From: Yuukianura sp. NJ FZ-2021
Taxonomy: Eukaryota
DNA: 64,000 bases
Assembly: GCA_046563655.1 (NCBI GenBank)
Contig: CM102285.1
Coordinates: forward strand, 4,960,001 to 5,024,000
Direction: 5' to 3'
A program made the translations under genes and the position numbers. Within the stretch, counting starts at the first letter, position 1. Each line of letters opens with the position of its first letter. Shown piece after piece: positions 2,781-58,653 of this stretch. A model generated the notes under the pieces. It saw only the letters and a list, made by a program, of their open reading frames with translations, was not told the origin of the DNA and ran no database searches.

Positions 2781-5026
2781 ATGTCTCACCTATCTCAAGC
2801 AACCCAAGATGCTCGACCAAAATTCCCGTGCCAATAATCAATGCCAATGCTTTTGTAATAGTCCTAGAAACTTCCAAAGAAGACTATGGAGAGTGTCATT
2901 CCAGAAAACTCAAATTGTTGAACTTTTTCGAGCTACGTCCCACTTATTACGTGCGTCAACTCCAACTTCAACTGAATTTGACGTCTTGGAATAGTTCTTT
3001 CGATTCTTTGTACATAGTGTCTTCCTTTATTCTGATAGGAAAGATCAATTGCTCAACTCAGATAATTTCAATACTCGGATTTTTAATCTTGCCCATGACG
3101 GTACATATTCTCATATTATAAGTAATTATCTCAACTTTAAAAATGTTTTCGTGTGGTGCGTCTACTCTGCCGATGGACGACGGTGGGTGCGTTTGGCTTT
3201 TAAAATCTCTCCGTCACAATTTGCCTTAAGACTGTGATGAAGGGACGGATCATGAATCATCCAAATAATGAGCTTCCATATTTTAGTTAGTGCTTTACTG
3301 TACTTATTTAGTGAGGGATTTTTTGGCGGTAGGCCAATCAATGCAACTGGACATTTGTATTCTATATTTGGACTAAAGACAAATTAGTTAACTACAGCTA
3401 TTAAGTAATGAACGACTCCTGCTTTCATCGAGCTTCCATAGACTAGATTACAAGGCTTGAATGCTATTCTGGCTTAAGTTAATGCATTTCTGTTAAATTT
3501 CAAATGATTTTATTTGGTGTGAGTTCATAATTGTAAAATCGAAAGTGGTTTTCATTTGTTTCAAGTGAAACGCTTTCATTTGTTTCAAATGAAACTTCTT
3601 TCATCGATTCCTGCAAGTGCAACTCTTATGTCCGTATGTTACAGTCTGTATTTTAAAATCTAAAGCACGAGCAGGATTCGGTTGTTGCGTAGCATAGTTA
3701 GGAAATGTTGAAAATTCTATAATATACTCAGAAAATATACTTTTAAGCTAAACTGTTAAGATTTAGAATGTTTTGCTCTTTATGTTATGAACCAAACAGG
3801 TCAATTTATTTTAGTTGTATATGTTCTAAGGGAAAGGTTGATTGTAAAATATGAAGAGTGCCATCATCTTCAATTTATTTTTAAATTCAAACACTCAACT
3901 TCACAGTATTCTTCATCCCATTCCGAAAGTATAGGGATTCTGGAATCCTGGGAGAATTATAGATTACAATAAAATGCTGTGGTGAGAAAAAACATTTATT
4001 TAAACTTTTAAAAAAATTAAGTGTTTAACTACTTCATGCTATGCAAGGTTCGTAAACAAGAATGTAGTTTTTCTCTGCAACAGGTTAGGCAATAACTCTT
4101 TTTAAATTCTTGTAAAAAATTTGCAAACTTTGGTTGACCGTTCTTTTCTATAGCAATGATTTGTGCGTAATCCAATGGGATTTACGTGAAACTGGCGGGA
4201 AATTGTGTTAAACCCTAGAAAGTCAGAGCTGCCACGTTTGTTGCGGCACGTTTATTTCTGGAACTGCTTATCCGATTGAGGCCAGATCATATGAATTGGC
4301 TAAGCATGCTCCAGAAGTGTTTTTTTCTCAAAATTTGGACAATGGCCAATGGGCTTTTGATTTTTGAGAGTTAAAGTACTTGCGGATTTTGCGGTGAAAA
4401 TCCGCAGAATATTAGTTCTCGTTACTTTTAATACAGTACACCAATGACCCGGTACCAGGCGAACAACTCCATAGTGGAACTGGGTGATATATTAGTAAAA
4501 AACCGAATGCAGACCGACGGAAGGATAAACTCGTATCAAGAGTCTTCTGCGGTATGTGTTAAATATGGTCTTAAAATGTAGGAAGTGTTGCATTGAATTT
4601 TTACATTTGTGTAATGGGGTATCGTCTGTTACACATTTTCATTTTGAACCAATCCCATACTCAACGAATTGATTTTAACCCTTTTAAATTCATTTAATTT
4701 GATTTTAATTTTAATTTGAAACAACTGCATGGATACTTGGAATATGCGGGTTGTGAACAGTTGTTCATTAAGTTTATTAATATGCTAACTAATTACTGTA
4801 GAAAATGAACAATAGAAAGGAAACAGAAGCAGTTAAATATTTAAACAATGGAGTTATTAAATTAATGGGTATAAAATAATGAATCAAAAATAAGTTCGAG
4901 CACGACAGAAAGCAAAGTAGTATCATAGTAGTACTAAATTCTGGACTGTCACACCAACTGTAACATTGGGAGTTGACTTGGTTATCTCAGTTTCGTAATT
5001 TGATGACATTTTGGATGGTATTTTTC

Positions 5027-6993
5027 TCAAGATAATATGGCAGCTGAGTGGCGGTGTGCGATACCCAGCGTCTCAAGACTGTTCCATCTTCGAGTTGCGT
5101 TTGGGAATGGTGACATGCCAGAAGTATCTGGGGTTGACGGAGTCCCAGTCTTGTCTCTTCCGCTGGCTACAGAAGACATTGCTTCCAACTTCACTGCACG
5201 CTCTTTGCTTAACGGTTCTGGAGGCAAGGTCAAGTCGTTTGCTTCAGCAAGTGTACGAAGGTCGAAGTAGTACTTTGCGTAGACACTCGAAGGGACGTTG
5301 ATATTGAATTGGAGAAGCTCCAGACATTGGCGCTCCAATTCATTCCTAAAAAGACATAAAATTTATAATAGGGTAGACACATTGCTTTTGTTGTCGCCGG
5401 TATTAAACATAACAAGTATTTTCTTACATGTCTTCCACAGTAATATCTTTAAGGATATGACAATAATCCACGTTCCAAACTGCTTGGTCGTCCCAAACCT
5501 TTGAAGCAAGCAAGACAGAACCAAGAACCATACGACGCCAGTTTGTAGACATGATGTCCATTTCCGCGTAGGTCAACAATCGTTCCAAGTAGACTAGAGC
5601 AATTATAGCACATTCAGCTGTAAGCTGAGCAGCATTGAAAAGTGTTCGTACAAACCTATATGCGAAAATTAGAGAAACAAAATTCAAATGGTTTAGTAAC
5701 CTCATCCTTCAGCATAAATTTCGTCACAATGTAATACACAAGGTAGTACATCTAGCACCAAATGCATGGAGTGATCTTGTTCTTATGTCTTTTCATTACA
5801 TGGTTCGTCCAGTTGTTCGTTTGCTGTCGCCATCTTATGTTCTTCACGAGTTTGTGAATTTCTTTCAAGTCGAATCGTTGAATGCTAACACAATAATCGA
5901 ATAACTTCTTAGTAATACCGCTTTGTGAGTGTGGGAATTGCACACAGAACACATTACACGTCATTTGACGTATTCCTTCCCATCCAATATGAAGAAAATC
6001 ACAATTAAATAATAATATTAGATTGCTAAAGCCTGGACTTAACCTTACAGGTACATTGTGTTCATTCTCGTTCAAACATGTCAAAAAAATACCTTAGTGT
6101 AATTGTGACGTTACCTGTAAATTTGTCTGTGCTCTGGGTTGTGAATCTCTAAAGGCGGCCCTTCTTTCGACAAAGGATGTAGACGCTCATCGAAGATGTC
6201 CAAGGGACGCTGTGATGTTCGATTTCGAATGTGATAATAAATAGCCAACGAGAGGCACTTCAGCGTATTTTTCAAATTTGGTTGTGAAACAGTCGAGTCA
6301 TCAAGAAAAATTGTGGAACAAGACGAACTCTTCTTCAGCGGACTAGGTTCATGAATCTGTTGAATATTCAATAATAGTTTAGTTTTAAACGGGTTGCCCC
6401 TCCGCAATGAATACGTGAGTGGGATTGGGGATTGGGGTGTCCGTCATTTTTCATCAACCAATTTAATTTGCCTAAAAGACACCTTCATAATTAACATGGC
6501 GGTCAGTAAAAGGATATTTAAACAATTTCTCTAATTCGAGCGGGGTCTGTCTACGAAAAGTTACAAAAATTAAAACTCAAAAGAGTAACTTTTTTTTTTA
6601 AACGAGTTCTTGTGCAGTGCTTATCCTCGTTTCTTTATGTTAGTTTATAAAATGAGAGACCCTTACCTGGTTCATACTCTTCTTTCTGATCATACCATTC
6701 TGAATTGCGCGTTTAGATTTTTCAATGAATAAGGTTTGGGCGGAAGGATGCACTGATGGGTCCTTGTTGAAGTCATCTGGTTCTCGCTCACTGATGTGCT
6801 GCAGATTGGCCCCGCTTTCTTCGCGATCTAATCCGCTGCTACGGCCTCCTCCAGGATCATGGCGATGATCGCCAAACTCATCAAAATCACTCTCCCGGCC
6901 TGCACGTCCATTGGTAGACCAGGAAGTCTTCGCCTCAGGATTCTGGTTCCTTCTTGGTCCTCTCCATGCACAACAACTGTTCAAATTCCCCAT
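5027..6993 (-). CDS. CycY: Cyclin Y
   Basis: Starts MGNLNSCC (lipidation-type N-terminus). Motifs [71 protein letters not shown] and [18 protein letters not shown]. Exons about 6667-6993, 6115-6356, 5447-5656 and 5027-5345. Confidence 0.95.
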
Positions 6994-8307
6994 TCGGTCT
7001 CTATATAAAAGAAGTACCAGAGAACATAAAATCACCAGTAAGCGGATAAATGGAAAACTTAGAAATGTGATATAGCGTACCCGAGGCGAGGTGCTTAAAA
7101 TGTTAGTTTGAAACGAAAGTGTCTGATGCTTGATGCAACTTAGGATCTTCCAGTGTTTGTTGACAACCGGTTCAGTATCTCCCAAGATCTATGGTATTTG
7201 TCACTGATTTTAGTTATTCGCGTTTTCACTTTACCGTTGATGTGAAACCGGCCGTACACCATATTTTGATAACTGACGTAAGAAGTTACAATGTTCTGCA
7301 ATAATAATTGTAAAAAGTCATTATTTTATTCCGTCAATCAGAATCAAAACCAGACCAGATGAGATGATGATGAGATGAGAGAAGCGGAGAACGAGAAGCT
7401 GAGGATTTCCTGATACAGTATACAGTGTATATACTACATTTCGCGGAGGTGCCTAATCCGCTGAATCCTATGATTACGATCCATCTTCGGTTACTTTTAT
7501 TTTAACATATACCTGTACATGTGCCATCGGGCGTTCAGCACCGCCCGGACTTGTTTTTTAAGGGTTTTACTGGTATTCCGAGGTGCTTTAAAGCACAATC
7601 CTTTTTTTTTTGTTTTTGCAAAAACAACGCTTTTCACATAAACAATACATATCGGCACTGGTCACATCGTGTGGTTACAAAAAATGGTATTCCGTTGTAC
7701 CTCAACCCACATTTAAAGAATAGGCCCATTGCCTCCTCCGAGTTGAGGTAATGTTGAAGGACGATCATTGTAACCGGAAAGTTTAACCACTTATGGTCAT
7801 CTTGGGTGGTGAGTTGTCGAGTTGTGACAACGGCATATTCCCATATTATACGCAGATGCAGTTCGTATTTATACAGTAACATTATATATCATGTAAAACG
7901 TACTATATCCTATGGGCGCCTTACATCAATCACCCATTTTTTCCTAACCAGTTGCCACAAGCTCAGCCATTCAAAACTACCGCCAATGCGACTACACGGT
8001 ACGGTTACAATTACAACTGTCAAGCCTTACTTCAACAGTAGTCAAGTCTGTTTCCCTCCTTTTCTTTTTGGAAAACTCCAAATCCATACCGTAAACAAAA
8101 GAGAAAAGACTGGCAAGTATTTTATTCGGAAGCAGCAGAATTAACCACAATCTACTGCAGCAGAAGGTTAGTCACTTAAGTAATGGGTGAAGCGCTGGTT
8201 GAGGCATTTGTTTCAATATATTTCAATTTTTGATTTGGCTTGTGAAATTCACAGGGTAAAAATCTTTTTCCGGTATCCCCGCAACCATTTTGAAGCTATA
8301 AAACGCT

Positions 8308-10671: not shown

Positions 10672-13600
10672 TCAGTACGGATGGAAATTTCCGTATGTGC
10701 GGTGCTGCTGCTGCTGAAATCCACCACTGGAACGTGGGTATCCCATGCCCCCACCACTGAAGAAAACGTTAAACAGGTTTGAAGCGTCAAAGTCTGATCG
10801 TCCAAAGCCAGAATCTGGTGAATCTAGTAGATCATGGCCAGCGTCGTAGCGGTTCCTTTTCTTAGGATCCGATAGTACTTCATATGCCTGTCCTAATTCT
10901 TTGAATTGCTTCTCTTGCTCCTTCTGCACAGTTTCGGAGGCAGATGAGTGTCGATCTGAAACAAATGATTGAATACGTTATGTAGGGTTGAATTACAAAC
11001 CTTAATGATTAATGAAAACGTGAATTACCGGGATGGTGAATAAGGGCTCGTTTCTTGTACGCCTTTTTAACATCGTCTTGACTTGCATTCTTGTCTACTC
11101 CGAGGATTTTATAGTAGTCTTTTCGTAGAGCTTTCTTGGCCGCCAACTTCATTTCCTGGATGTATTTGCGGTACTCCGTATTGCGTGAGTCCAACTTCTG
11201 GGCTGCCTAAGGGTTTCAAAAGTTGGTTAGAATGTTCGGCATATATCCAAATTAAACGCACTAGGAAATGTTTAAAGTTGTGTTGTTGCAACTTCCTTGA
11301 AAGCGTTAAAAAAGTCACAATCTTTGAAGGCTAAGAGGGCGTAACCTAAATAAAGGACGCCCTCTGTTTCAACGATTCAACTTTTAGAACGTACCTCATA
11401 GTCTGCTACGGCTTCATTGAACATTTCTTTCGTCTTATGAATGTGTGCCCTATGGAGATGGGCCTTCAAGTACGACGGGTTGAGCTCAATTGCCCGATTG
11501 ACCGTAGTCAAGGCCTCGTCCAACTCTCCCAGCTTCGTAGCAATCAGAGACAAGTTGAGTGACATTTTCGACTCGATCATGCTCTGGTCACAAAAACAAA
11601 CATTATTATCAAAATGGAAACCGGAAGCCGATAATAGAAATAAGGCGATAACATGAAATGAAGGCTTACGTTTGGATATTCGAATGCCTTGACACTCTCG
11701 ATGCATTCCATGAATTTCACACGCGCCTCAGCATAGTTTCCTTTTGAAAAAAGACTAGCAGCCTCCTCGCGTACTTCTTTCAGTTTCTTTGTTCTCTACA
11801 TAAAGAATATACACTGGTTAGAGAGTTAAATCATTTAAAAACCAGTTACAAGAGACGTAACCAATCTGTAAATGTGTTAGAGGTGTAATGAGTATATCAT
11901 GTCAGCGAAATTTTTGGAAACGGCATCCTCAAGGCTTCCAGTTGCAATTTGCAAAACGCGCACCCTTGGATTTCCTCTTATCCCATACCTAATCTTACAC
12001 CCACTTTACTTACTCCCTAAACAGTCACAGTCACAACAGTCACCAACATGTTAAACTTGAAATACAACGCATTACCCTAAAGAAGTTAACGATCAGAGTG
12101 CTGTCAGGAGCAAATTGAAGAGCCTGTTTCAAGAATTGGATTGCTTTATCCAGATTATCCAGATTGTAAAGACAAATGGAGCGGATGTAGTAGGCGTCGA
12201 CGCAGCGGGAATCCAGTTGTAACACTTCCCTGTTTAAAAAAATGGTTATTAGCTAGATATTTCATGCTAACTACTCTTAAACGGTATTTTTTAAATGATA
12301 AACATGACTTACGTGCATAGCTCCTGTGCTTCAGGTGCTCGATTCAGCTTAAGAAGAGTGTCGGCCTTAATCATTTTCAGTTCCATATCTCCGTCCGCAA
12401 TCGCTAACGCTCTTTCGCAATGGAATAACAGCTGAAAATGAGAACATGTTTTAAATACAACCAAAATTACTTTGCTTAGGACAGGACGTTAGCACACTTT
12501 CATCATAAGTTAAATTCCTTGAGGAAGAACTCCGCACAACTCTCCAGCTTCCAGGTTCAGAGAACAATGTCCGGATTTTCCGTACCAAGGAATATTATTG
12601 CGGAGTCGGAGTCAGACACCAGTACGTACTGTCCCTCAGCAGCTATAAACGACCCTCTGGAAATGAGGAATTATGGCGGCTTGTCAAAAAAATAGGTCCA
12701 CAAAAATAAAATTCACCGTTTTTCAATAAAGCGGTTTTCCTGCCACAAGCCACAGATTGTTCAAAATTTTTATTCTTTCACAATTTTGAACTTTTTTCAA
12801 AATTTTGAACATTTTTTGTCAAAATTTTGAAGTTTTTTCAAAATTTTGAACTTTTTCCAAAAACTTTCACTTTTTTCAAAATTTTGAACTTTTTCCAAAA
12901 ACTTTCACTTTTTTCAAAATTTTGAACTTTTTTTCAAAATTTTGAACTTTTTCTCAAAATTTTGAAGTTTTTTCAAAATTTTGAACTTTTTCTCAAAATT
13001 TTGAAGTTTTTTCAAAAACTAACTTTTTTCAAAAATTTTTCACTTTTTTCAAGATTTTTCAAAATTTTGACCTTTTTTCAAAATTTTGAAAAAGGTCAAA
13101 ATTTTGAAAAATCTTGAAAAAAGTGAAAAATTTTTGAAAAATCTTGAAAAAAGTGCAAAATTTTTGAAAAAAGTTAGTTTTTGAAAAAACTTCAAAATTT
13201 TGAGAAAAAGTTCAAAATTTTGAAAAAACTTCAAAATTTTGAGAAAAAGTTCAAAATTTTGAAAAAAAGTTCAAAATTTTGAAAAAAGTGAAAGTTTTTG
13301 GAAAAAGTTCAAAATTTTGAAAAAAGTGAAAGTTTTTGGAAAAAGTTCAAAATTTTGAAAAAACTTCAAAATTTTGACAAAAAATGTTCAAAATTTTGAA
13401 AAAAGTTCAAAATTGTGAAAGAATAAAAATTTTGAACAATCTGTGGCTTGTGGCAGGAAAACCGCTTTATTGAAAAACGGTGAATTTTATTTTTGTGGAC
13501 CTATTTTTTTGACAAGCCGCCATAATTCCTCATTTCCAGAGGGTCGTTTATAGCTGCTGAGGGACAGTACTAGTATTTCAGCCACAAAGGTCAAAACAAT

Positions 13601-16501
13601 AAAAAAGACTACACTTCAAGACTTTTGGTTTATGACGCATCTCAGCTCGACATATGAACAAACTTTTGGAACACCCATAAGGTTTCAGTATCCGTATGCA
13701 ATTGAACAATCAAAAAAACAACCACCAAACAATAGATTTAAAAATGAACCTAGCTAGCAACATAAAATCTCATTCATGCAAAAATAGTTCTAGTGTATCA
13801 AATGTATTCCTTACGGTTCTGTAGTCCTTTCTCTCCTTTAAAGTGTTCATTTCTTTCCGCACTGCTTTCAACGTGACGAGCCTTCGCTCTTCAAAATCAA
13901 ACTTCCCTTTCAAGTTGGATTCCTTAAGATAAGCTATCACGGAATCTGCTCCAACGGTGTCACCAAGAGACAAGTTAGCCCTCAGAAGTCGTAAGTATCC
14001 CTGTTGAAGACAAGTAGTGGATCAAATACCGCTTACATTCAGACGTGGGCACCTAGGGTATGTAGGGTATGTACGGAGGGGTCTGGGAGAATTTGACAGG
14101 TCGGAGGGGGTCCGCAAAAATTACAAGATCGGAGGGTTTTGAAGCGACTTTGAATGTCCAAATTCAAAATTTCGCTGCGCCTAACGGCGCAGTTTCATTT
14201 GATTCCGATTGGGCTTCAATTTGCAGGGCGGGAGGCAATTTTCTGATGTCAAATACAAAATTTCTCTGCGCCTAACGGCGCAGTTTTATTTTTCCTCTCT
14301 GGTTTACCTTCAATTTGCGTGGTCAGCAGTGACTTTCGAACGTTCAAATCCAAAATTTCTCTGCGCCTAGCGGCGCAGTTTCAGTTTTATTCCGGTTTAC
14401 CTTCAATTTGCGGAGTCAGAAGCGACTTTTGCAAGTTCAAATCCAAAATTTCTCTGCGCCTAACGGCGCAGTTTTATTTTTCCTCTCTGGTTTACCTTCA
14501 ATTTGCGTGGTCAGCAGTGACTTTCGAACGTTCAAAAATCCAAAAATTCTCTGCGCCTAACGGCGCAGTTTCAGTTTTATTCCGGTTTATCTTCAATTTG
14601 CGGGGTCAGAAACGACTTTTGAATGTCCAAATCCAAAATTTCGCTGCGCCTAACGGCGCAGCGAAATTTTTTACTCCGGTTAATTTGTTGAGTCGGAAAC
14701 AATTCTCGGATGTCAAATCGAAAAATTTCTTTAAAAAAATGAAAAAAAATACATATTGGTCGGAGGGGGGAGAGGGAACCCCCGGTCGGAGGGGGGCTGA
14801 CATGCCCACTGGTGCCCAGGTCTGCTTACATTACTTACATTATTTCGCATTCAAGACATCCCACCAATCCAAGAAATCATTAGATCACTTACATTGGTAA
14901 AAAGAGGATCCATCTGGATCGCAGTCCGCGCATCAGCTTGGGCTAGTTTATATTTCCTGAGCATGATGTAACAGGCAGACCGATTTCCATAGAAGGAAGG
15001 TTCCGGGATTAATTCTAAAATGTCAGTCACTATAGAGGAAAGCACAGGCCATATGCGATTTTGTGAGTAACACTTACCAATGGCTTTTGTATACAATTCC
15101 AGAGCCTTGTGGTAGTCTTTCGCAACAAAATATTGGTTCCCAAGCTCTTTCAGTTCCTCCGCTTGCCTAAGAAAACACCAACAAAAAATTAAACGAATAC
15201 TTTTGTTACTGTTGCTATTATAAATAGTTTGTCAGTTGTGCCATGCGTCGTTGCTTTTACCTTAAACGTGCTGCTCGTAGAAGTTCTGGTGGAGTAACAT
15301 CTTCGATCTCCTCATCTACAGACATCGCATCTGCTTGAATATCTTTGGAAGTGGATTCTGCATCAAGGGAAGCACTGTTGTGCAGCGGTAAAACTTGGTT
15401 ATTACGGAATGGCTGGGATCTGGACGCCATGTTGTTTTCTTCACTAATTCGACGGTGCTGAACACGAATATGAAAAAAATTTTCACCGGAAATGAAAGGA
15501 AGTATTTTTAATTAATTTTTGAAAATCGTTGTTTTCCCATAAGGCGTAATGTTAACAAAAAAATTTTTGAACGTCATTTTTTTCGTTAGGTTGATTAAAT
15601 TAGATTCAGATAGGTTAGGTTAGGTTAGTTTTCGTTAGGTTAGGTTAGGTTAAATCACTATAGGTTATTCTTTCAAAAAATTTTTTTTAACATTACGCGT
15701 TAAGGCAAAACAACGATTTTCAAAAATTAATTAAAAATACTTCCTTTCATTTCCGGTGAAAATTTTTTTCATATTCGTGTTCAGCACCCTCGAATTAGTC
15801 TAGAAAACAAGATGGCGTCCAAATCCCAGCCGTTCCATAATACCCAAATTTTTCCTTGTGCAGCTCGTCCCCGATGGTAACCTAAACGGAAAAATTCAAA
15901 AGAAAAAGATCGGTATAATCGATTGGCGAGGATTGAGACTCCGCTCCGCTCCGCCATATTTACTGGCTAGAATAGGCACCTGAAACCTGAGTGGCAACTT
16001 AAGTAGCCACTTTAACCTCACCAAGCCTAACCTCTCAGTGTACCCACCCATTGCAGCCACTAAAGACGGCTGGAGTGACTAAATTATACGCTAGAGTGCG
16101 AACCAGTTCTACTAACGTAAAATGACAATGGTTAAATGCGTATCAAGCTGAAGGACAGTGCTTACATCTTTGTCCTCTTCAAACAATGGTTCATCGCATA
16201 CATCAACATCAGAGTCCACCGAGTTCTCAGTTTCCAATTTCACATCGTCGTCACTGTCGCTGAGGTAAATAGTCTGGTTCAACTTTGCGGAATCATTTAC
16301 TTCGGGAACATTTTCAGTTGGGATGCCCTCAATTAGAACTGGGTTGGAGGATGATAGGTGGCCAGACAATTTCGGTTGTTCAAGCTTAGTTCGCCTGCTT
16401 CTTAATTTTCTACTGTTCCTGGGTGATGACTCGTAAACTACTTCAGGCTCATCATCGTCCATCATGTCAATGTCAGTGCTCCGAGGCGCTTTAGTGTCCA
16501 T
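10672..16501 (-). CDS. DNAJC7: DnaJ homolog subfamily C member 7 (TPR repeats plus J domain)
   Basis: TPR exons ([41 protein letters not shown]) and J domain [10 protein letters not shown]...HHPDRH...[21 protein letters not shown]. About 11 exons. Exon 2 (15261-15881) is interrupted by a MITE. Confidence 0.92.
12626..13570. mobile_element. Foldback-type non-autonomous element, near-perfect 945-bp palindrome in a DNAJC7 intron
   Basis: GTACTGTCCCTCAGCAGCTATAAACGACC... at 12626 is mirrored by ...GGTCGTTTATAGCTGCTGAGGGACAGTAC ending at 13570. The interior is TTTTCAAAATTTTGAA-type repeats, also inverted about ~13083. TA flanks both ends. Confidence 0.9.
14040..14824. mobile_element. hAT-type MITE with internal ~93-bp tandem repeats, intronic in DNAJC7
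   Basis: TIR CAGACGTGGGCACC / GGTGCCCAGGTCTG; 8-bp TSD CTTACATT at 14032-14039 and 14825-14832; six copies of the palindromic CTGCGCCTA(A/G)CGGCGCAG unit. Confidence 0.88.
15387..15855. mobile_element. Mutator-like MITE inside DNAJC7 coding exon 2
   Basis: Long imperfect TIRs (~185 bp) with GG...CC ends; 9-bp TSD TTGTGCAGC at 15378-15386 and 15856-15864; central TTAGG tracts. Confidence 0.9.
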
Positions 16502-17984: not shown

Positions 17985-20900
17985 TCAGCAGGACTCTTCC
18001 TTTTCAAATCCCTGTAGAAAAAAAAACGATATTTAAATCTAAAGCAAATCAAACAAAACTAGAAAAACCGTATCATAATTTTTTGGTTACAGGGTTCTCT
18101 AGTCCCGAAACTCTGACTGTTTTCGGGAGACCCACACTTGCTTCGGATCCTATGGAAATACCCGAGATAGGTCTACCGCCACGTCCCGAATCTGTAGAAT
18201 CCGACTCCGTATCATCGTCCGTCGAGTAGTCGCTGCTTTCTTCTTGTACGTCGCTCGGACGTCTCATGCTGAGTCTGGAACGAAGTTCATTCATCGTGTT
18301 CCGTCGTTGAGACTTTTCAATGGGAACGACATGGGAAAGTACTTTTTCCTGGTCTTTCGTAGCTAGAATTTGAGCAGTTCCAAGTTAATCGTAGAAAATT
18401 TGAATAAATAAAAATCTAGTTCTTGCCGTTTTCCTTACGCAATTCGGAAAGCCTGCTCCAATTTTTGTCAAAACGATCATCAAGTGATTCGAAGCCTTGC
18501 ATTGACTTAATAGTCCGACGGTGAAGATTGGCCACCGAGTTTTCTTCGTCGTCCGTCATCTTGTTCTTGTCCTTATTCTTGATGCTTGTCGCTTCTGCAA
18601 CGCAAGAAATAAAAATAAAAACACGAAAATTCATCAAAGCGTTACGTTTTAAAAATTTAAATTTTTGTCAAATTTCTTACCTTCGAAGGACTTGTACTGC
18701 ATAAGAGCATGAACGAGCCCGATTCCACTCTTGGAAACCGAAACGTCTCGTTTGAGCGCTTCCACCGTTTTGGTTGTACATGGAGTTGGACACGGGAAGG
18801 TGAATGGTGTAGAGGCCAATATATGCGACATTGTACCAAATCGATGGAACAACATTGCGATAAACTGAATGATAAGAATGACTGCAAAGAATAGGGATGT
18901 TCACGTTCCGTTTCCAGAAACGGAAACGAAACGGAAACGGCTTCGTTTCCGTTTCCGTTTCCTCGAATTTTGGAAACGAAACGACCGGATCCGTATCCGT
19001 TTCCAACCTCTCCGTTCCGTTTCCGTTTCCGTTTCCTTCTTGGAAACGAAACGGAAACGCTTATTTTCTTTTTGCAGGGTAATTTTAATTTTCAAAGCAA
19101 AAGATTCAGAGACACAAGATTGAGTTGCGCTCAAAAATAAAACTTAGTCACACATCTGACCTTTCTGATCATATTTGCTTTGCGATAAGCGACACTGGAT
19201 GTTATACCTGCCGCAATAACGCAGTGCATTACCCTAAAACGTTGGGTGGAACCGATTTGGGTCGATTTTTGACAACTTCACTGATGTAATAGTGGAAAAT
19301 GTCATTGTACAATAGAGTAACATTTAGCCCAGCTGATTTTCGCTTATTTTTTTACATGCAGAAAAAAATTATCCGTTTCCGTATCCGTTTCCGTTTCCTG
19401 GCGTTTCGTTTCCGTATCCGTTTCCGTTTCCAGAGGGAGACGCCGTTTCGTTTCCGTTTCCTGAAGTCCCGTTTCGTTTCCGTTTCCGTTTCCTCGTGGA
19501 AACGAAACGAAACGGAACGTGAACATCCCTAGCAAAGAATAGCACGAATGTGAATCCGATTGGTTCCAGCGTCAAGTTTTGATCTCCCAACGGCCACGGA
19601 ATGCTCAAACTTTTCTTCTGAAGTTCCAGAAAGAAAATCAAGAGGACGAAAATGGCGTTCAACATGAAGAACGTAAAGACGCATTTGTTTCTGAGCACCA
19701 TCAAACCCTCAGTCATTTCTTTCTATAAAAACATGATCGAAAACTTTAGAAAATTTTTGAAATGAAGGTTTTCGAAAGTCAAAAATGTTGCAAACAGCGT
19801 TTAGCTCACCTCTTTCTTTTTGTTAGATTCAATTGGTTTTAAATACTTTTCAATCAATTCATTCCAAAACTGGACTTCTCTTTCCGGCAAGAAATCTACT
19901 TTACGGCGCATGAGTACTCCATCTGTTATCCAATAGGGATTGACCATGTCATCTCGGATTGCTTGCTCTGTCGCTGCAACATGAACAAGTTCTTGTGTTA
20001 ATTTATAATCGCCAATTTTCGGAAAACTGATTGAAGCATTCTACTCAAGCTTCCTTGACAACCAATCATCTTCTCTTAAGAGGTTGCGTATTACCTCGGT
20101 TGTTTACCCAAAAAATGAAAATAACAAAAAACTGAGTACCAGGAGTACCAGTTCCAAAATAACTTGGTACCAGTAAGAATTCTGATTCTGGAAACCGTTT
20201 CCGTTTGAAATCACGCGTTAAAAATCGTACTTCCAAAATGGTTAACTGTTCTTTTCCTAAGTGTAACGTTTCTCAGTATAGTTTTAAGTCCAGCACAATC
20301 AAATTCAGATTATTTCGAGTTCCAAAGCATCCAGAAACGAGGAAGAAGTGGGAAGAGGCTTGCGGTGTGACATTACGTGATTCTGCACGCATTTGCTCGA
20401 ATCATTTCCCTCAACTAGAAGAACATCACATTTATCTACCGAAGGAATTCATTCCTCAACAACAAACTGCAGGTAGAATTAATTAAAAAAATAATTAAAA
20501 AATTTCAGTATTAAGCAATTAGAAGTTTTTGTTTTTTGTTTAAGGAGTTCCAACTCAGCCAAAGGGTTCTACAAAAGCGTACAAGAAAGATTACAGACAC
20601 CGGTATTTTGCTGTACGAAGGAGACGAAACAAGGAGAATTTGGAATTGAAGAAACGTTATGAATTGAAACTGGAGAAAAAAGATAAATTAATTTTGAGAC
20701 TTAAAATACCTTCTACTGAATTTCTGCAAATGACGGAAGTATGGGATGAATACTTCAGAAGGTATCTAAACCCCAACAAAGTATAGAATAGCTTTAAAAT
20801 TTGGAAATCGTTAAATTAACTCAATTCCCTGTAACTGTTTCCTCAGGTTTCATGGGGATCTCATCAGTTTGAAGCCTGGAGTAATTCAATTACTTAGTAA

Positions 20901-23900
20901 AATCGTCGCAAATGAATTTTCAAACATGGAACCAGAAATTATTCAGAAATTCATTCGTGTACGCACGTTCATCAGGATCAGACACTTGAATTTCAAGCTT
21001 GAAGCTGCAAAATCTAGACACAAGATACTAAAAAAGTCGACTCAGTTCTATTAGTTAATATTATTTCTTACTGGAAGCGAAGCATTTCTAAGCAATAAAA
21101 ATCTAAAAAAAAAAAATTCAAAAATTGGAATTTCTCTATTTAAAATGTTATGACAACGGATTCTTGAAGGCGTGCAAGAAAAGTGAACTTTTTTTCAAAA
21201 TTTAAAAATACTTGAGGTAATACGCAACCTTATAAGGGATTCTTTGTTTACAAACGTTGCATTCTACTATTTTCATTTCTTACACTTTGTGTCTTCATCG
21301 AAGTGAAAACTGATGTGTTTGAGGCCTTTGATTTCTTCATTCTCTTCAACAACATGCATTGAATTCCGAACAGGCGGATTTCGAAAACTTGATAGTCTTT
21401 TCGCTGTTGGACTGGGTATGAGGCCAACTTGTTCCTTCGAACTCAAGGCGTCCAATTTTCTGTCAAAATGGAACCAATAATCTCTTATTATTTTACTTTG
21501 AAATTACTATTTTGAAAGAATTTTTTATGTTACCGATCCAGGGCTTCCAAGCGAAGGCTCACTTGTGCCAAACTGGCAGCCATTTGAGCTGAATCTTTCT
21601 TTTCATGAGTGCAGCACATCAATTTGAACAATCCGGCAAACGAAAATTCAAGTGCTCCCTCCGTGTCATCTTTACCTTCCCGCAGAAAACCAAAAAATCC
21701 GCCTTTAGCCTGTTTTTCTTTCTGTGCCTGGAGTTCCTTCTCCTCTTCCACCAATTCCTGCAACAATCAATTTTGAAATTTGAAACTAAATACGTAATAA
21801 ACTCACGGTAACGAACAAAACACTTTAATTAAGTTGCATCTCTTACCTGCTTAGATTTTACTTTTGGCCCTTCCCTTGTTCCTATGAAAAAATTGAAATT
21901 CCAAAATATTGAAAATTAAACAAAATATTTCTTGCTAAATTACCAAAAAAAATCTTTGAAAATAAAACTAACCCCAGGAGACATTGTTGAGGTTGAATAT
22001 AGAGAAGATGATCAGAAGCAAATACATAGAGGGAATTGTGATGAAGTAGATGAACCCATGCAGTAGACAGCCGATTTCTAGGGGATGCATGATAGCTGAA
22101 ATTATGAAACTGCCGGCAACAACCACGAGAAAAATGGCGGAAGGAGACAGAAGGCCTTCTTCGGCAACGAGCACTGCAATTGCCACCAGAACCGCCACCA
22201 TCACAAGCGCATAGATCACTGACAGAACTTTGGCCATTGACAACTGAGCTTTTGACGTTCCGTAGAAACATACGAATGAAAACAAAGTAACTGGAATCAA
22301 ATTCAGAATCATGCTCAGCCACTTATCCACCCCCAAAACTGAATTTAGCGCGCCAACCAACATCAAGAAAATTGTTCCAGGCCCAAGAACCGTTCCCACC
22401 ATCATGAAGCACTAAAATTGAAAACAAAATATTTTTTAAACAACTTGCAATCATGTTAGAGCATAAACATGGCACATACTTGGTAAGCAATGTATCCATA
22501 CGAAATGTCTGGGTTGACGGCGACTGTTCTCTTAAAATCCGTCAGGACGTCCAAGATGTTGGCAGTGGTTGACGGAACCCAACGCCTGCGCTGATTGTAA
22601 AATTCGTCGAAATCTTCAGGGGCATGCGTAAAGGCGTCACTTGCTGCCGAGTAGTCCACTCGATACCCTTGTTGAAGAATGAGTGTGCAGAGCCATCTAT
22701 CTTCTCCTTGGTCATACTGAACGTAATGTCGTGGTTCCGTTGACACAGTTGTATACTTTGCCATCACATTGTCTGACATCAAAGCTTTCCCTCGGAAAAG
22801 CGAAAAACACCCGGGAGAACATAACACACAACCAAGCACCTGAAATTTAAAAAAATCAGTTTCGAATTTCTAAAATCAGTTTGGGAATAAAAATAAATAT
22901 CCGTATATTTATATATTACGTGCTCAGTTGCTTTTTGCAGCCAATGACCAATGGCATACTCAAATTTCTGATACCACAACATGAGTCCACCTCCACCGGT
23001 TGGGTGAATTCTGCCGCAAGCTGCTCCAAGTTTCGGATTTTTCTTCATCAGGTCAATGAGTCGCTCAACAGCGATTGGTTGAAAGTCGACATCTCCATCA
23101 AGTGCCAAAATAAATGTGTTCCGTGCCCGAATTTCTTTTCGTTCGTCAGCAATTGGCAAATCCATGAGTCGATATCCCAGCAAGTAGTACATGTACATGC
23201 ACTGACTCCATCTTTTCTTATGCCGAATTTTGCTTTTGTCTTTAAGGTGCAGAATCATTTTAGTTTTGCCAGGTAGAGTCCATTCCAGACGACCGCCATA
23301 TGGAGTTGGAATCTTCAGAGGCGGTCGAATGTGAATCGGAACTTGGTGTACTTGTGCTGCAGCCTCATCCACAACTCCAATAAACGTTTTCACAAAATTG
23401 TTCAAAATTTGAGGAGAGTGGTAGTCCTCCGGGTCACTGTAAATACAACAACTAGGTTCAACAGGTTCAAAAAGTTTGCATCCCAAGTTTCTCAAATCAC
23501 CTGAGCTGGAAAGCGTCGTCAAACAAAATGTGTGTTTCATATTCATAGTAGTTTTCAGTAATTTGAAAATGCTGCGCAGCAATCCGACGCACTCCTTGAT
23601 CTTCGTCCATTCTCAGAATACTTTTCATGATTTCCAGCATTTCTTCCTGTAACACCAAAATTTATATCTTAATGAATAGTTGTTAAAAACTATTTGTGTA
23701 ACACTTGATCTAAAGATCTTATAAAACGCAGAAATGTAATGTTTTGGTTAACCTCAGTTTCATGCCACATTGTTGCACACGCGTAGATCCTGGGAATGTC
23801 GTCTATTTCTGTCATGTTCTCATAGCTTTTGCTTCCGTCAGTTTTGTGACCTTTACTTTCAGAGTACTTTTTTCCGCGAATCCTATTGAGAGTCATTGAT

Positions 23901-51119: not shown

Positions 51120-51768
51120 CGGCAGTTCCTGTGCTCAAAATTAGCAATGCTTAAACAAGAAGCAGAAGTAGCTGAGCAACCGCTTAAACTTCTCAGCAAT
51201 GTAAATTTGATTGCTGCCCGTAACGCTGGGCTAACACCTTGCTGATTCAAGCTCAATATCTGCTTGCTAATGTTGCTAACTGAAGTCAAAGTAGAGGGCG
51301 GGAAGTTGATTAGCATATATTTAAACTCCCCTTCAAACACAAAGGCGGCAGTTTCTGTGTTGAAAATTAGCAATGCTTAAACCAAAACGAGAAGTGGTTG
51401 AGCAACCGCTTCAACTTCTCAGCAATGTAAATTTAGTTGCTGCCCGTAGCGCTGGGCTAACATCTTGCTGATTTAAGCTCAATATCTGCTTGCTAATGTT
51501 GCTAACTGAAGTCAAAGTAGAGGGCGGGAAGTTGATTAGCATATATTTAAACTCCTCTTCAAACACAAAGGCGGCAGTTTCTGTGTTGAAAATTAGCAAT
51601 GCTTAAACCAAAACGAGAAGTAGTTGAGCAACCGCTTCAACTTCTCAGCAATGTAAATTTGCTTGCTGCCCGTAACGCTGGGCTAACATCTTACTGATTC
51701 AAGCTCAATATCAGCTTCCTAATGTTTCTAACTGAAGTCAGAGTAGAGGGCGGAAAGTTGATTAGCAT
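51120..51768. repeat. Tandem array of a 226-bp unit (~2.9 copies)
   Basis: AAAATTAGCAATGCTTAAAC recurs at 51137, 51363 and 51589. Confidence 0.9.
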
Positions 51769-52072
51769 CAAGGTTGCTATAGCAACGAAATACTTGTGCT
51801 TTAAAAAGATAAAGTATTTCTTTGTTTATCCACCTTGATTTCATGTTTGCAAGAAACTCAATCACTACTGGCGAAAGCTACGTTCTCGTTTCTAAAATTA
51901 AATTTGATAATCTAAATAAGATAAAATCTAATTTGTCTTCATTGACCTACTAATTAACTAATGTACCTACACATCTTTTTTTAACTTAAACTCAAGTGTA
52001 CTGGCCTGCATGCAGGGTACTTGAAGTGAAATAAATACAAATACAAATAAAATTTAACTCTTCTGAGATTTT

Positions 52073-52561
52073 TGTGAGGTCAGGATACCGTGGTTAGCCC
52101 ACGGAACCCTGTCCTCACTACCCACATAGATTTGGCACACTGACTCAAGGTTTTGCACACGAGCCTATGTTGGCCGAGTGAGAGGAGCTACTTTTGGGTT
52201 TGGCAGCTTCCTCTCATGGTCACATTCCTGACCATGAGAGAAAGCTTAAGTAGCAGAGGAGTGCGGGAGAGCGGAGTAGTAGTAGCTTGGGAGACAGTAG
52301 ATTGGGAGAGAGTCAAGCAGGAGAGTAGCCGAGAGTCAGTAGGTCTCCTCTCCAGATCTTCCACCATGATGGAGGAGCTGGAGAGTGGACGAGTCCTGGT
52401 ATCCAACACCGAGGTCCAGAGGGACCCTTAGGGCGAACAGCGCAATAAACTCATCGTCGCACGCATTCCAGGGTCACGTCTTTCACCTTCTTTGAGTCAC
52501 TGCCGAGGTTACGGGAGGGTTGCTACACTGGACCAAGGTGGGTCCGGTTGGCACCCTTTCA
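52073..52561 (+). repeat. 5' LTR
   Basis: Direct repeat of 58654-59142, identical on reading; AATAAA at ~52444. Confidence 0.95.
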
Positions 52562-55050
52562 TTGGTGCCCGATGCAGGGGGAACATTCTATCAGGTACCA
52601 ATTTCACTACTAATGTAATTAGGAATCATGGGGAACGAAATGTACTCACTGACAAGTAATAGATTTTTATGTAATCAGTATCAAAAAGTACAAGATGAAC
52701 CAAAATAATAACTTGATTATAAACGGCTGAAGGGCCATCTACACTGCGTCTGCGCCGTTTTGTTACTGGTAGTATTAGTTAGGTAAAAACTTTAGTGAGG
52801 GTAAAAACTGGCACCATCCATAAAGTTCTGAATCAGAACTACGAAGTTAAAAAACACTTATTTGTGAAGGATTCATGATGAGAATTTTGAAAATGAGGGT
52901 ATACTGAACACAATTCAATTAAAAATTGTAATAAGGTCAGGAATTGAAAAACTCAACAGCAAAGTCCTGTGCAGTTAGTCTTTGTGCGGAAGGTTCCGTT
53001 TTGTGTTTAGGCATAGCATATAACCGTTACTATACTCTGCTGTAGATAGACTCACGCCTCAAGAATGACGTCAAATCAGAGGCGAAAGTATATCCATCAA
53101 GGGGAAGTAAGGCTATAGGCAGACAGAGTAATACCTTCAGACAAGGACTACTAACATGGTATATGTTTCTTTCAACTTTTACTACAAAGCACTCTATAAC
53201 AAATTTATTTTCGATCCGGCAGACAGTTTCTATAAATGAGTACCTTCAAATGACTTAGTCAACGATTGAGCAAAAATTGTTCCAAGAATGTAATATCATC
53301 TAAAACTTTCTGAATCATTGTTCTTTATTGCAATTCTTTAGTAAAAAGTACTCACTGGCATTTAATTCAATTCTTCAAGAGATGACGAGTTACCCTCTAA
53401 ATCTTGATAGCTATTACAGGGCTATATAATAACACATGTTATAGTAAAACGGTACTGTAGCAATAACAAGGCTGGCATATAATGGATCCTGCATCCTTAA
53501 GGCTTAGAGGACAGCATAGAATAACGATTCACTTAACATTGTCATTAGTTAGCCCACTTTTCACTCTCACACTACATCAGCTAAATTGGTAACAAAAATT
53601 TTACAGACTAGTGGTTCAAAAGTAAGCATGCCACTGGTTCAAAAATTAGTTGGTTCGGGAGCTTAAGTGGTTCAGAAACATTAGGTTAAATGTGTGTTTT
53701 AGGTTTGGTTATTGGTCCTAATTTTTGAGCCGTTGGGTTTTGAACATATTTAGCTAAAATAATGGCATGGAACCGTTCAAAAACAGGACTACGTAAACTG
53801 GATTCCCATACACACATAGCCATCCGAAATCAGTTGCTTGCGAAATTGCAGCTTACATATACTTTGAATTTTTACGAAATTTGTCATTTAAAAATCTAAA
53901 AACTCAAAACTAAATATCTCCTGTTCCTTTCAGTAAATCCTTTTAACGTATATAAGGTAGATGGCCCAGTCAGTGTGGAGAGTTACAGTATATATGGTTG
54001 CTATGAGAAATAGGAGATTTGCCAAAATATTTTTTTCGTTCCAACCTCACAAAGATCAAACGGTATAAATTTTAATTAATGCATACTTTGAGTACCGCAC
54101 ATGAGTAGCCTAGGAGTTATATATGGTAGCATACAACACCCTATGGAGTACGAAACGACCATTACCGTTGCCATGGGAAACGAGATCAAGCATAAATATA
54201 CACGCTCTGAGTTTTATTTTATTTGGGTCTACCTAATTTCTATTATTTTAGTTATTTTAAAATAATAAGCGTGCAATTTATTTAAAGATTTCATTCTTTT
54301 AAAAATAATTTTCCATCCAGGTCATACACGCGTAGAATGCCAAAAATAGGTAGAGGATCAACTAGAAAAACCAGGAAGCGCGCGATAAAAGGAAAAATGC
54401 TCATACCAGTTTTTGCATAGGCACTGATATTCTCTAATTTTAACATAACTTTACCCTACTTAAAGTTGGCAAGTTGAATTGGCAAACAAATAAATGGAAC
54501 AAACAGGACGCGTGCAAGGTTTTCTAGTAGTTTCGCTCAAAATAAAATCGGGGAAGGAATTGGCTAACTAAAAAAAAGGGCGGGGATAACCTACTGACCT
54601 CAATAGGTTTCCTACCAATAATGTCCAAGTTGGCAAGTATACCAGGAATTTATCCGATCCCCATACATATACAAAAGATTAGGAAATCCATGCAAATTTG
54701 ACACCCAACTCAGAGTATGGAAATTTGTCGGGACATTAAGAAAAAAAAAGAAAGGGGTGGGATTGAAATCATTAGAAAAAGTTTTCAAATACCCGAACAC
54801 AGCATTTTTGGAATCCAGAACCAATAACTCTGTCAAATCCTCCAAGGGTTTTACGGGATCAATCAGTAAAACACAGTCAGCAATTTACAAAATCCAAACT
54901 TGACTTCACGACAATCCGGAAGGAGTAATTCCAGGTATCAGGTATCATTGTCCAACGATACTAGAACACCCTCAAGGTAGAATCCGAATCATTTTCTCAT
55001 TCGATTCAGTAAATACAGGACAACTGGCTTTAGCATTGCAGCCTGTAGCC

Positions 55051-55785
55051 ATGTCCGCTAAAGTTAAGCTACCTAGATTTTCAGGAGAGTCAGGCGAAGA
55101 TGTGCTTACGTTTATAACTAAATTTGAGCTTGCATGCGCAGCCAATGACATACCTGCAGGGAAAATGGCAATAACTTTAACCTGCCAATTAGATGGAACT
55201 GCAGAAGCCTGGGCGGTTGTCGAAATTGATCGCTTGAGACGCGAAGCGGCAGGAGTAGCCGTCACCATAACGTACAATCAACTTCGATCAGACCTCATTC
55301 GCATTTTTGGTAACAAAGATTCACTGGCCGCTGAATTAAAATATAAAGATCGCAAACAACAAATACATGAAAGCATTGAGAAATATGCATATGAATTGTT
55401 AAAATTAATTCAACAATATGATCCAACGATGAATGAGGAGAAAAGAGTTAAGTATCTCATCAAAAACTCCAGACCGTCGTTTTTGAGTCAAATATCTCTG
55501 TTGAACCCAAAAACGACGGAGGAATTTTTGAGAATAGGGCGAGGCATTGAAGACACCAATCAAATCATTGCGCATCACCGCGATGTCAATGTTTTAACAT
55601 ACGCCCTTGAATCTACCGTTAGTAAAGACAAAGAAATTTCAGACCTTGGTGAAAATGTCAAAAATTTACAAGTCTTAATGGCAATGCAAGAGCCGGTCAC
55701 TGAGCCGGAGCCGGAGCATCATGCAAAAAATGGGACTCGGGGGAGCTTTCAGAGGTCCAGCTACCCCGGGACTCAATTTCAGTAA
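55051..55785 (+). CDS. gag: Retrotransposon Gag (capsid-like)
   Basis: LPRFSGESGEDVLTFITKFE...LDGTAEAW...RKQQIHESIEKYAYELLKL is a retrotransposon gag-domain pattern. Confidence 0.85.
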   Translation: MSAKVKLPRFSGESGEDVLTFITKFELACAANDIPAGKMAITLTCQLDGTAEAWAVVEIDRLRREAAGVAVTITYNQLRSDLIRIFGNKDSLAAELKYKDRKQQIHESIEKYAYELLKLIQQYDPTMNEEKRVKYLIKNSRPSFLSQISLLNPKTTEEFLRIGRGIEDTNQIIAHHRDVNVLTYALESTVSKDKEISDLGENVKNLQVLMAMQEPVTEPEPEHHAKNGTRGSFQRSSYPGTQFQ

Positions 55786-55928
55786 CGACCTCCATTCAAC
55801 CAAAGTATAAATTATGTTCCGAGAAACCGCAATCTGTCTATGACATATCGATTCCCGTAGCGACCATCCTAACGAATACGCCAAAAGATCATGAGTCAAC
55901 TTTTCATCAATACGCACCAATAGTTATC

Positions 55929-57170
55929 TTGACAGTCGGGACGGGTCATTTATTAATAATTACAGGTTTTATTAACCAAATGCAAGTACCCATTTTACTC
56001 GATACAGGTGCATGTGCTCGCATAGTATCATCTGAATTAATCAATCCGCATAATATTCAGCAGTTAAAGCAAAAAATAGCATTGTCTAGTATTACCATCA
56101 AATCAATCGAACCTTCTGGTAGCTCTCATGTTTCCATTCAAATGGGAAGGGAAATATTTCTACATTCAATGCTTCTACTTGAGGACTTCATATTAAAAGC
56201 ACTAGTGGGAGCAGATTTCCTTGAAAAAGCTAAAATTCAAATTAATTATTTAGACAAGACAATCAAGGTGGAAAGCACCGTATTGGCTATGGGCACTACC
56301 GGCAACAATAATCATGAACTCAATCAGGTTAACATCGCTACTGTAGAATTAGGAAACAGAGATCAAGAGAGACAACCACAAGCTTTTAGTCCACCCCAGG
56401 TGGAGGAGAGTGATAGGGGGAATCACACTCCTAATAGTACAGAGGAGCAATTAAACACGAGTCAAAGGGTTAAGCCGTACGCAGAGACAGAGATTCAGCC
56501 AAACACAGGCATTCATCAACAATTTTGTAAACAAATAATACTCACATCACTGACCGGTCATGAGGAGAAAGTGATCTGGAATACACCACTTTCTTCTATA
56601 ACGGATCCTCAGTGGAAAGGAGGTGAAATTCGTTCCAGGCCACTTCCTCTTTTCAAAGAAGAAGTGAGTATTTCTATGAGAGAAGAAAATGAGAGTAGCG
56701 ATGACATTAATGAATTCAATGAAAAACGAGTCTTACATCAAATTGGTATACATACGGTTACCCCATTTTTGAATAAATGGAACAGGAAAACTGATACACA
56801 AAGTACCGTTTTGTCCACAGAAATGGAGGCACAAGCAAGTAAATTAAATATTACTCACGCCCATTCTTTACAACTTGAGACTTCGGAGATTGATGAAACC
56901 AAACCAGACTTTGACATAAATCAAGTACCACAGGCATTGTATCAAACTCATATCGAACATATATACGTGTGCAGAAATACAGCGTTGACTCATGATCAGG
57001 TTCGGGATTTAAAACACTTGCCTTTTGAATTTCCCGCCATTGACTGAAGAACAAATTGACATTGCTAATAACATACATGCAAGGTCAATTAAACACGAAT
57101 CACCCCTAGCTATTAGTCCCCAAAGGACACGGCCTAAGACCACATGGCTTAAAAATTATGAAACTGAACA
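55929..57170 (+). pseudogene. pol: Truncated pol: aspartic protease followed by a probable integrase-tail remnant; RT, RNase H and IN core absent
   Basis: ILLDTGA and ALVGADFL protease motifs. No YxDD or DDE region in any ORF of the track. SPQRTRPKTTWLKNYET at ~57115-57165 resembles the RxxRxxxPxWLxDY ending of Gypsy pol. Confidence 0.7.
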
Positions 57171-57292
57171 TAATGTAATGTAAACTACAAAGTAACTCAC
57201 TAACCATAGGTTAAGTTTATACATTATTGACTAACAAAACTAAAAATATAAGAAAGCATGTGCTGCTTATAATTATTGCTGTGGCACAAAGC

Positions 57293-58260: not shown

Positions 58261-58653
58261 ACTCATACTGGTGATTTCATCCCAATTAATACTGTGTTTC
58301 CTCATACCTCTGTTTCAACTAATGCTACCCTTCCTGGCGTATATGTAGATATGTGTGACCCGTAAAAGCAATACAGAAACACAAAAAAAAAAAGAACGAC
58401 AAGTACTCATGTATAGATGTTTAGTGTATTTATTAGTAATGTATATGTATGTAATTAACACAATGTTAGCAGCAACTCCTGCATAAGATCCGATAAGACA
58501 TTGTTATCAGAATACTATATAGTTATTTCATGTCGTGTGCATCAAAACAAAAAATGTGTGACTTTGAGTATAGGATACATTGCTAACAACTAACATTGAG
58601 GCTGTGTAAAGAAAGGGAATTCCTTCCAGGAATTCGGTGTTGGCGGGGAGGAA

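Follow-up and report, generated by a model that had tools for sequence, protein, structure and literature searches.

A probable P-superfamily transposon copy with an in-frame internal deletion at a chitin synthase locus of Yuukianura sp. NJ FZ-2021

The element and its gene

The stretch of DNA analysed, hereafter the window, comprises 64,000 nt of the genome of Yuukianura sp. NJ FZ-2021 (assembly GCA_046563655.1, contig CM102285.1, positions 4,960,001 to 5,024,000 of the forward strand), and all coordinates below are positions within it. An element of 1215 bp located at 20046–21260 is, with good probability, a cut-and-paste transposon copy of the P superfamily (P element/THAP9 type) that arose by internal deletion of a longer parent. 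The assignment to the P type is based on the joint presence of a THAP domain, an 8-bp target-site duplication, inverted ends and the C-terminal domain of a P transposase. Public contigs from four sequencing runs were aligned to window positions 19600–21700; run X2 derives from the same organism and sample as X1, X5 from a different but closely related organism, and X6 from a metagenome. These contig data are unable to demonstrate absence, and summed contig depths do not equal copy numbers. The features of the element are the following:

20046–21260, plus strand: whole element, 1215 bp, probable non-autonomous internally deleted P-superfamily transposon copy (limits from other copies and the empty site)
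20038–20045, unstranded: left target-site duplication ATTCTACT, 8 bp (repeat of GCATTCTACT and empty-site contig)
21261–21268, unstranded: right target-site duplication ATTCTACT, 8 bp (repeat of GCATTCTACT and empty-site contig)
20046–20097, plus strand: left terminal inverted repeat, imperfect, with a perfect 17-bp core at 20081–20097 (end-to-end alignment)
21214–21260, minus strand: right terminal inverted repeat, with the perfect 17-bp core at 21214–21230 (end-to-end alignment)
20135–20173, plus strand: 5′ subterminal cluster of three (A/G)GTACCAG motifs (at 20135, 20144 and 20166)
20238–20472, plus strand: exon 1, with the start codon and the THAP zinc-finger domain (Pfam THAP)
20473–20544, plus strand: predicted intron 1, 72 nt, GT..AG (canonical ends and kept frame)
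20545–20761, plus strand: exon 2, with a basic linker, the deletion junction and the start of the retained C-terminal domain (from K132-I-P-S)
20696–20702, plus strand: deletion junction, a 7-bp overlap GAGACTT common to both parent sides (breakpoint contigs)
20762–20846, plus strand: intron 2, 85 nt, GT..AG (homology-supported)
20847–21054, plus strand: exon 3, with the remainder of the P-transposase C-terminal domain up to the stop codon, including the motif R-V-R-T-F-I-R-I-R-H-L-N and a basic tail (phmmer, profile and model)
21094–21099, plus strand: AATAAA, possible polyadenylation signal, 40 nt 3′ of the stop

The limits of the element were set from three observations: the 10-letter word GCATTCTACT is present at both ends (20036–20045 and 21259–21268), matches to other copies of the family start at 20045–20047 in three records and end at 21259–21260 in loose ends of X5 and X6, and the site is empty in other contigs. 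The resulting duplication of ATTCTACT has a length of 8 bp, which is the target duplication size of P elements (PMC7776569, PMC10983969). An initial annotation of this DNA, made from the sequence alone, had taken perfect 17-bp inverted repeats as the ends of the element. The 17-mer AGGTTGCGTATTACCTC does occur at 20081–20097 on the plus strand and at 21214–21230 on the minus strand with zero mismatches, and these are its sole matches in the window when up to three mismatches are allowed (0.12 expected; 2 of 100 shuffles reached two matches). Alignment of the left and right ends (20046–20097 and 21214–21260) revealed an imperfect repeat of about 50 bp, with 38 of 53 columns matching. The 17-mer is the perfect core of this longer repeat and not the terminus of the element, so the match described initially was confirmed and its role as element end was not. 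A nested element at 20081–21230 enclosed by a shorter outer repeat was also considered and ruled out, since several other copies match straight through 20080/20081; the outer arms thus belong to the same element. A blastn search for further copies of the element in the window returned the self-match and A/T-rich words only.

Close to the left end, the three (A/G)GTACCAG copies are candidate transposase-binding sites. The motif GTACCA is also found within the loose-end consensus of other family copies; over the whole window, (A/G)GTACCAG is not enriched (39 matches vs 31.5 expected).

The three exons, separated by GT-AG introns, splice into 660 nt corresponding to 219 codons and a stop, with no internal stops, which corroborates the uninterrupted 219-aa open reading frame of the initial annotation. 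The THAP domain, for which a HMMER check had been proposed, was recovered in exon 1 by Pfam at residues 4–59 (E 2.5e-10; 41.4 bits for a cut-off of 23.9), with the four zinc ligands C4, C9, C53 and H56 in place. The unspliced frame would give an 83-aa THAP peptide ending at 20484–20486. The linker encoded by exon 2 is strongly basic (19 K+R per 52 residues). A coiled coil had been proposed for this region and was not recovered: in a crude heptad test of residues 80–150, the best register placed L/I/V/M at 3 of 8 a/d positions in 28 residues, a result reached by 2000 of 2000 shuffles. Comparison of exon 2 with longer proteins gave 194 candidates, none of them at E ≤ 0.01.

The sequence encoded by exon 3 (68 aa) was searched with phmmer against 1.84 billion representative proteins. 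This search revealed 21 matches at E ≤ 1e-3, with a best value of 1.3e-6 and none at 1e-10. Five of these proteins (P0004, P0010, P0013, P0017, and P0019) carry Tnp_P_element_C at E ≤ 0.01, three of them above the Pfam cut-off; in addition, P0004 contains TNP-like_GBD (E 3.1e-14) and a weak TNP-like_RNaseH_C, and P0010 contains TNP-like_RNaseH_C (E 7.9e-8). The remaining 16 matches are short fragments without a P-element family, one of them with a weak match to an unrelated domain of unknown function (DUF). In every long relative the exon-3-like stretch lies C-terminal to the Tnp_P_element_C match (404–465 vs 326–351 in P0004). Relatives found through exon 3 align to residues 131–218 of the spliced protein, and the alignments of P0002, P0003, P0007, P0008, and P0009 run without gaps across the joint of exons 2 and 3 at residue 151, so homology supports the splicing of intron 2. 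Furthermore, a profile of the tail, including exon 3 of the window, matched chain B of the Drosophila P transposase in 6p5a and 6pe2 (E 1.4e-14 with 6p5a_B; chain residues 30–123 of 135). The tail profile gave no match among proteins of 866–2470 aa. As judged from these alignments, the last ~88 residues of the protein are homologous to the C-terminal domain of P transposases, which upholds the similarity initially claimed for the last ~90 residues. The domain is kept in part: the region from L-x-x-P-S onward is present, and the front, W-I-x-x-L-S-x-G, is lacking.

The retained tail is basic (16 K+R in 89 residues), and AlphaFold, given exon 3 together with its relatives, predicted two helices with a mean predicted local distance difference test (pLDDT) value of 87.6; a Foldseek search of this 68-residue model against the PDB gave no match at E ≤ 0.001. 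According to a review, the C-terminal domain of the Drosophila P transposase consists of alpha helices throughout, touches both transposon and target DNA, and has a basic end (PMC7776569). The predicted helical fold and the basic tail are shared with the domain in 6p5a/6pe2, to which the profile match extends over residues 30–123, whereas the window protein starts at L-x-x-P-S, without the preceding W-I-x-x-L-S-x-G. Among the relatives, P0017 (402 aa) carries the tail twice in tandem, at 154–218 and 264–332, and both copies align to the same part of the window protein.

Searches with Pfam at thresholds up to E ≤ 10 found no RNase H or GTP-binding family on any exon or unspliced frame, in agreement with the initial proposal that the copy lacks the transposase core. 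Since this split RNase H/GTP-binding core is absent, the copy is considered non-autonomous.

The deletion junction, the longer parent and the age of the insertion

Contigs matching the element up to 20702 or from 20696, and continuing into unlike sequence on the other side, were found in X1, X2 and X6:

20112–20702: X1 contig of 825 nt, 1 other letter and 1 gap, then 233 unlike letters
20458–20702: X2 contig of 399 nt, no differences, with ~154 letters left over (by arithmetic)
20696–21136: X1 contig of 450 nt, 5 other letters and 2 gaps, with 11 unlike letters before
20696–20879: X2 contig of 347 nt, 2 other letters, with 163 unlike letters before
from 20696: X6 contig of 151 nt, 1 other letter, with 113 unlike letters before

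These contigs, which overlap at GAGACTT, mark a longer parent, and by comparison with them the window copy derives from it by deletion over a 7-bp repeat. Both the longer parent and a junction near 20700 had been anticipated by the initial annotation, as had an in-frame deletion through microhomology; the frame and the microhomology were confirmed, the latter as the 7-bp word GAGACTT, which encodes part of L-R-L. The sequence of the long form was read by hand in frame over 30 letters on each side. The letters 3′ of 20702 encode R-G-L-M-Q-R-K-D-W-A and remain open, and those 5′ of 20696 encode K-T-W-C-Q-F-L-S-M-G, followed by R-L-K-I-P-S. The latter sequence fits the family consensus W-I-x-x-x-S-x-G-x-L-x-x-P-S at 6 of 6 conserved places. 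The window copy lacks this front of the C-terminal domain and the long form has it, so we consider the long form ancestral. From the domains of the relatives P0004 and P0010 we infer that the helix-turn-helix, RNase H and GTP-binding core lies between the breakpoints. Summed depths in the bin 20665–20735 (783.1 in X1 and 419.8 in X2) equal, by arithmetic, the sum of the two abutting contigs in each run.

The insertion is polymorphic. One contig of X1 (789 nt) and one of X2 (514 nt) join position 20037 to 21265 with GTT between them, and the same contigs cover the flanks. In the host flanks, the X1 contig and the window have different letters at 13 of 438 positions (19600–20037) and at 6 of 334 (21265–21598). 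On the other hand, over the 591 nt of 20112–20702, the interior of the element shows 1 other letter and 1 gap in comparison with its counterpart in X1, another genome under the same organism label. This divergence is far lower than that of the host flanks, which indicates that the window copy is very young. Near-identical pieces are also present in X5 (326 nt with 2 other letters and 14 gaps). From this comparison of sequences the family seems younger than the divergence of the host lineages, as expected from a recent burst or transfer, with coding constraint as a possible alternative.

Other deletion forms of the family were observed as well. One of them, with a joint 20076>21233 over a 4-bp overlap TAAG, keeps the outermost arms only and was found in one contig each of X1 and X2; another has the joint 20080>21231 (X1). 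A record of X5 (721 nt) has the joints 20255>20640, 20702>20887, and 20985>21051, and by arithmetic ~270 of its letters match nothing in the window. Summed contig depth in X1 reached 4940–7287 and 2260–2759 over the outer ~100 bp of the two ends, vs ~240 in the flanks. Depth was 10–30 times that of the flanks over 20046–20141 and 21091–21260, and many contigs diverge at 20141. This pattern points to numerous short relatives with the same ends, forming a large family similar to miniature inverted-repeat transposable elements (MITE-like).

The host gene and other features of the window

The element lies in the region of a chitin synthase gene, in which Pfam identified Chitin_synth_2 on the minus strand at 22456–22869 (E 4.2e-14). 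The following open frames flank the insertion:

19801–20040, minus strand: putative host exon, open frame of 79 aa, downstream of the insertion in the direction of the gene (no Pfam hit)
21273–21503, minus strand: host open frame of uncertain coding status, upstream of the insertion in the direction of the gene (no Pfam hit)

With the element removed, both frames are in the same phase and three stops intervene between them, so a short chitin synthase intron was inferred at this place; one in-frame model has an intron of 36 nt, from 21285 down to 20027. The element had been described initially as antisense inside a chitin synthase intron. Its antisense orientation was verified by the minus-strand Chitin_synth_2 match, and the placement in an intron is deduced from the stops between the frames. 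In the frame at 21273–21503, 5 of the 6 listed contig differences change a residue. A protein atlas assigned the chitin synthase piece to chitin synthase clusters; the 79-aa frame gave low recognition, with unrelated bacterial clusters.

The insertion is placed ~11–18 nt upstream, in the direction of the gene, of the predicted acceptor, and it extends the intron from ~36 nt to ~1259 nt; splicing of the host gene could be disturbed in carriers. Within the chitin synthase region, at 18657–19722, minus-strand frames are rich in G-N-G-N/GNGNGNE repeats, and a 33-nt tandem repeat is located at 19374–19494; these simple repeats lie inside or beside coding sequence.

Several repeats are found elsewhere in the window. 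Two direct repeats of 300 nt (52073–52372 and 58654–58953) are 100% identical and 6581 nt apart, and retroviral-type aspartyl protease frames are present between them at 55704–57047 (RVP E 3.4e-5; RVP_2 E 3.1e-5); from these sequences, 52073–58953 looks like a young long terminal repeat (LTR) retrotransposon. At 12760–13436, a 19-nt A/T-rich unit forms two adjoining arrays of ~18 copies each in opposite orientation, that is, a large palindromic tandem array. A further tandem array at 14141–14661 consists of a 95-nt unit repeated 5.6 times (or 190 nt repeated 2.7 times), and at 51120–51797 a 226-nt unit is present in three head-to-tail copies with 93% and 83% identity.

Origin of the short form and comparison with other P elements

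The data are consistent with a model in which deletion between two copies of GAGACTT removed the middle part of a longer parent that related genomes still contain. Presumably the lost segment encoded the helix-turn-helix, the RNase H and GTP-binding domains and the beginning of the C-terminal domain. The result resembles the product of an interrupted gap repair after excision, a process that yields such deletion copies in Drosophila P elements and that may have acted here. Since both ends were kept, the shortened copy would be movable by transposase made elsewhere, and it would have inserted in antisense orientation into a very short chitin synthase intron, generating the 8-bp duplication. The deletion happens to keep the frame, so that a 219-aa protein composed of the THAP domain, the basic linker and ~88 residues of the C-terminal domain could be encoded. 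The open frame can be explained by the very young age of the copy and by the fact that one in three deletions keeps the frame, with no need for selection, and the in-frame fusion is most likely an accident of the position of the deletion. If the protein is made, the effect to be expected would be similar to that of the KP element of Drosophila melanogaster, the protein occupying THAP sites at the ends of the elements and hindering the full transposase; by this analogy, a role as a KP-like repressor is possible.

Some observations weigh against this interpretation. No Pfam family was found at E ≤ 10 in exon 2, exon 3 or the unspliced frames, including Tnp_P_element_C (PF12596), so the check with this model that had been proposed initially turned out negative for the tail; in the relatives, the tail lies beyond the match of the model. 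The parent is known from 30 letters on each side and from the lengths of the unlike runs, and the loss of the core is deduced from relatives. The window's assembly is the sole source of the junction: no contig spanning 20702/20703 as in the window was seen in X1, X2, X5, or X6, contig sets that are unable to show absence. The support for the predicted intron 1 consists of its GT-AG ends and the kept frame. Finally, the empty allele reads GTT, vs ATTC for a precise empty site, so it may correspond to an allelic difference or to an excision footprint instead of a never-filled site.

One alternative is that the in-frame THAP-linker-C-terminal domain protein is expressed and under selection as a repressor or dominant-negative subunit. 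It would then be a new kind of P repressor, relying on its C-terminal domain in addition to THAP, that has spread as a mobile module. It would account for a frame that is intact over three exons with the THAP zinc ligands in place, and the tail, whose model folds confidently as two helices (pLDDT 87.6), corresponds to the all-helical part that touches transposon and target DNA in the Drosophila structure (PMC7776569). Moreover, Drosophila deletion copies in which the transposase is interrupted and the DNA-binding domain is present can repress (PMC12393704). Against it, a copy separated from its parent by a single other letter and a single gap over 591 nt is expected to have an open frame without selection, given that one in three deletions is in frame. 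In addition, X1 and X2 lack the insertion at this locus. Residues 80–150 also show no heptad pattern of the sort expected from a dimerising zipper, and the deletion removes what followed L131 in the parent. Nor is the architecture known to recur: a word-dependent, and hence weak, search of short proteins (37–345 aa) gave 9 matches to the tail profile, 0 of them with THAP according to precomputed Pfam data. We therefore consider a selected repressor unlikely. A more specific proposal, in which the 219-aa protein would represent a new class of repressor whose THAP domain targets the ends while its C-terminal domain replaces that of the transposase and poisons the transpososome, is argued by analogy and appears doubtful, with a lower probability still.

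Two further explanations concern the reality and the direction of the deletion. The short form might be an assembly artefact, in which two segments of the repeated full-length element were wrongly connected at a short word common to both. The family is indeed repeated, with end depths of 4940–7287 against ~240 in the flanks in X1, and the junction of the window was seen in no contig of the four runs, although contigs are unable to show absence. An assembler would need a much longer overlap than 7 bp to be misled, a perfect 8-bp duplication flanks this copy at a site that is empty elsewhere, and the family makes other deletion forms, all of which render such an artefact very improbable. Alternatively, the short form could be the original one, and the longer contigs a later insertion or a different family sharing parts with it, a view to which the unlike runs (233, 163, and 113 letters) lend themselves in so far as they are known by length and not by content. 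The letters 5′ of 20696 encode in frame the conserved W..L-S-x-G-x-L front, which an insertion would not supply, and a 7-bp overlap between the two sides is what a deletion leaves, in place of the duplication that an insertion would leave; this explanation is the least plausible of all those considered, and we give it almost no credence.

The interpretation of the short form as a deletion copy is in line with what is known of P elements. P-type copies with an internal deletion and a retained DNA-binding head are the classic brake that Drosophila P elements make on themselves. As in KP-type (type II) copies, the internal deletion described here interrupts the transposase, and the DNA-binding domain and both ends are kept. 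The likeness to the KP element includes its length (~1.15–1.2 kb), its origin by internal deletion of a full-length P-type element with retention of both ends and THAP, and the lack of the catalytic core, which makes it movable only in trans. On the contrary, the deletion in the window copy is in frame and the product continues into ~88 residues of the C-terminal domain; to our knowledge, the KP protein does not run into this domain. The KP repressor has 207 aa, non-autonomous P copies range from 0.5 to 2.8 kb, and KP has been reported to dimerise, according to the title of a work cited there (PMC7776569). The window copy shows no leucine-zipper signal in the crude heptad test. In addition, KP occurs in abundance and has been tested for repression, whereas the window copy is known from one site and its repression is a prediction by analogy.

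Similarities were also found with the zebrafish Pdre elements. Pdre2/zfTHAP9 has 13-bp terminal repeats, subterminal inverted repeats and 8-bp duplications, and several internally deleted Pdre copies have been described (PMC7776569, PMC10983969). Both systems are thus P-like families outside insects with 8-bp duplications and internally deleted copies. They differ in their ends, which in the window copy are unlike those of Pdre and longer (~50 bp, imperfect), and in the empty allele that reveals polymorphism here. In the accessible parts of the Pdre literature (PMC7776569, PMC10983969), no statement was found on in-frame products joining THAP to the C-terminal domain. In Drosophila, repression has been reported for the 66-kDa (type I) repressor and the D50-type deletion copies, in which the N-terminal DNA-binding part is preserved (PMC7776569, PMC12393704). 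The 66-kDa repressor is likewise a truncated transposase product with this N-terminal part, although it results from retention of intron 3, not from deletion, and much more of the protein is kept. None of these products is described as carrying the C-terminal domain in the accessible parts of the same sources (PMC7776569, PMC12393704). A narrow search of the open-access literature found no in-frame THAP products of internally deleted P elements, which is not proof of their absence.

The polymorphic insertion, the sister deletion forms, the breakpoint and the trace of the parent together indicate that the family has moved recently. The same route of decay as in Drosophila P elements is thereby documented in a further eukaryote, to all appearance an invertebrate. 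Should the 219-aa protein prove to be a new class of repressor, the currently active family would make the poisoning model directly testable. The in-frame head-to-tail fusion provides a natural construct for asking what the C-terminal domain of the P transposase does alone.

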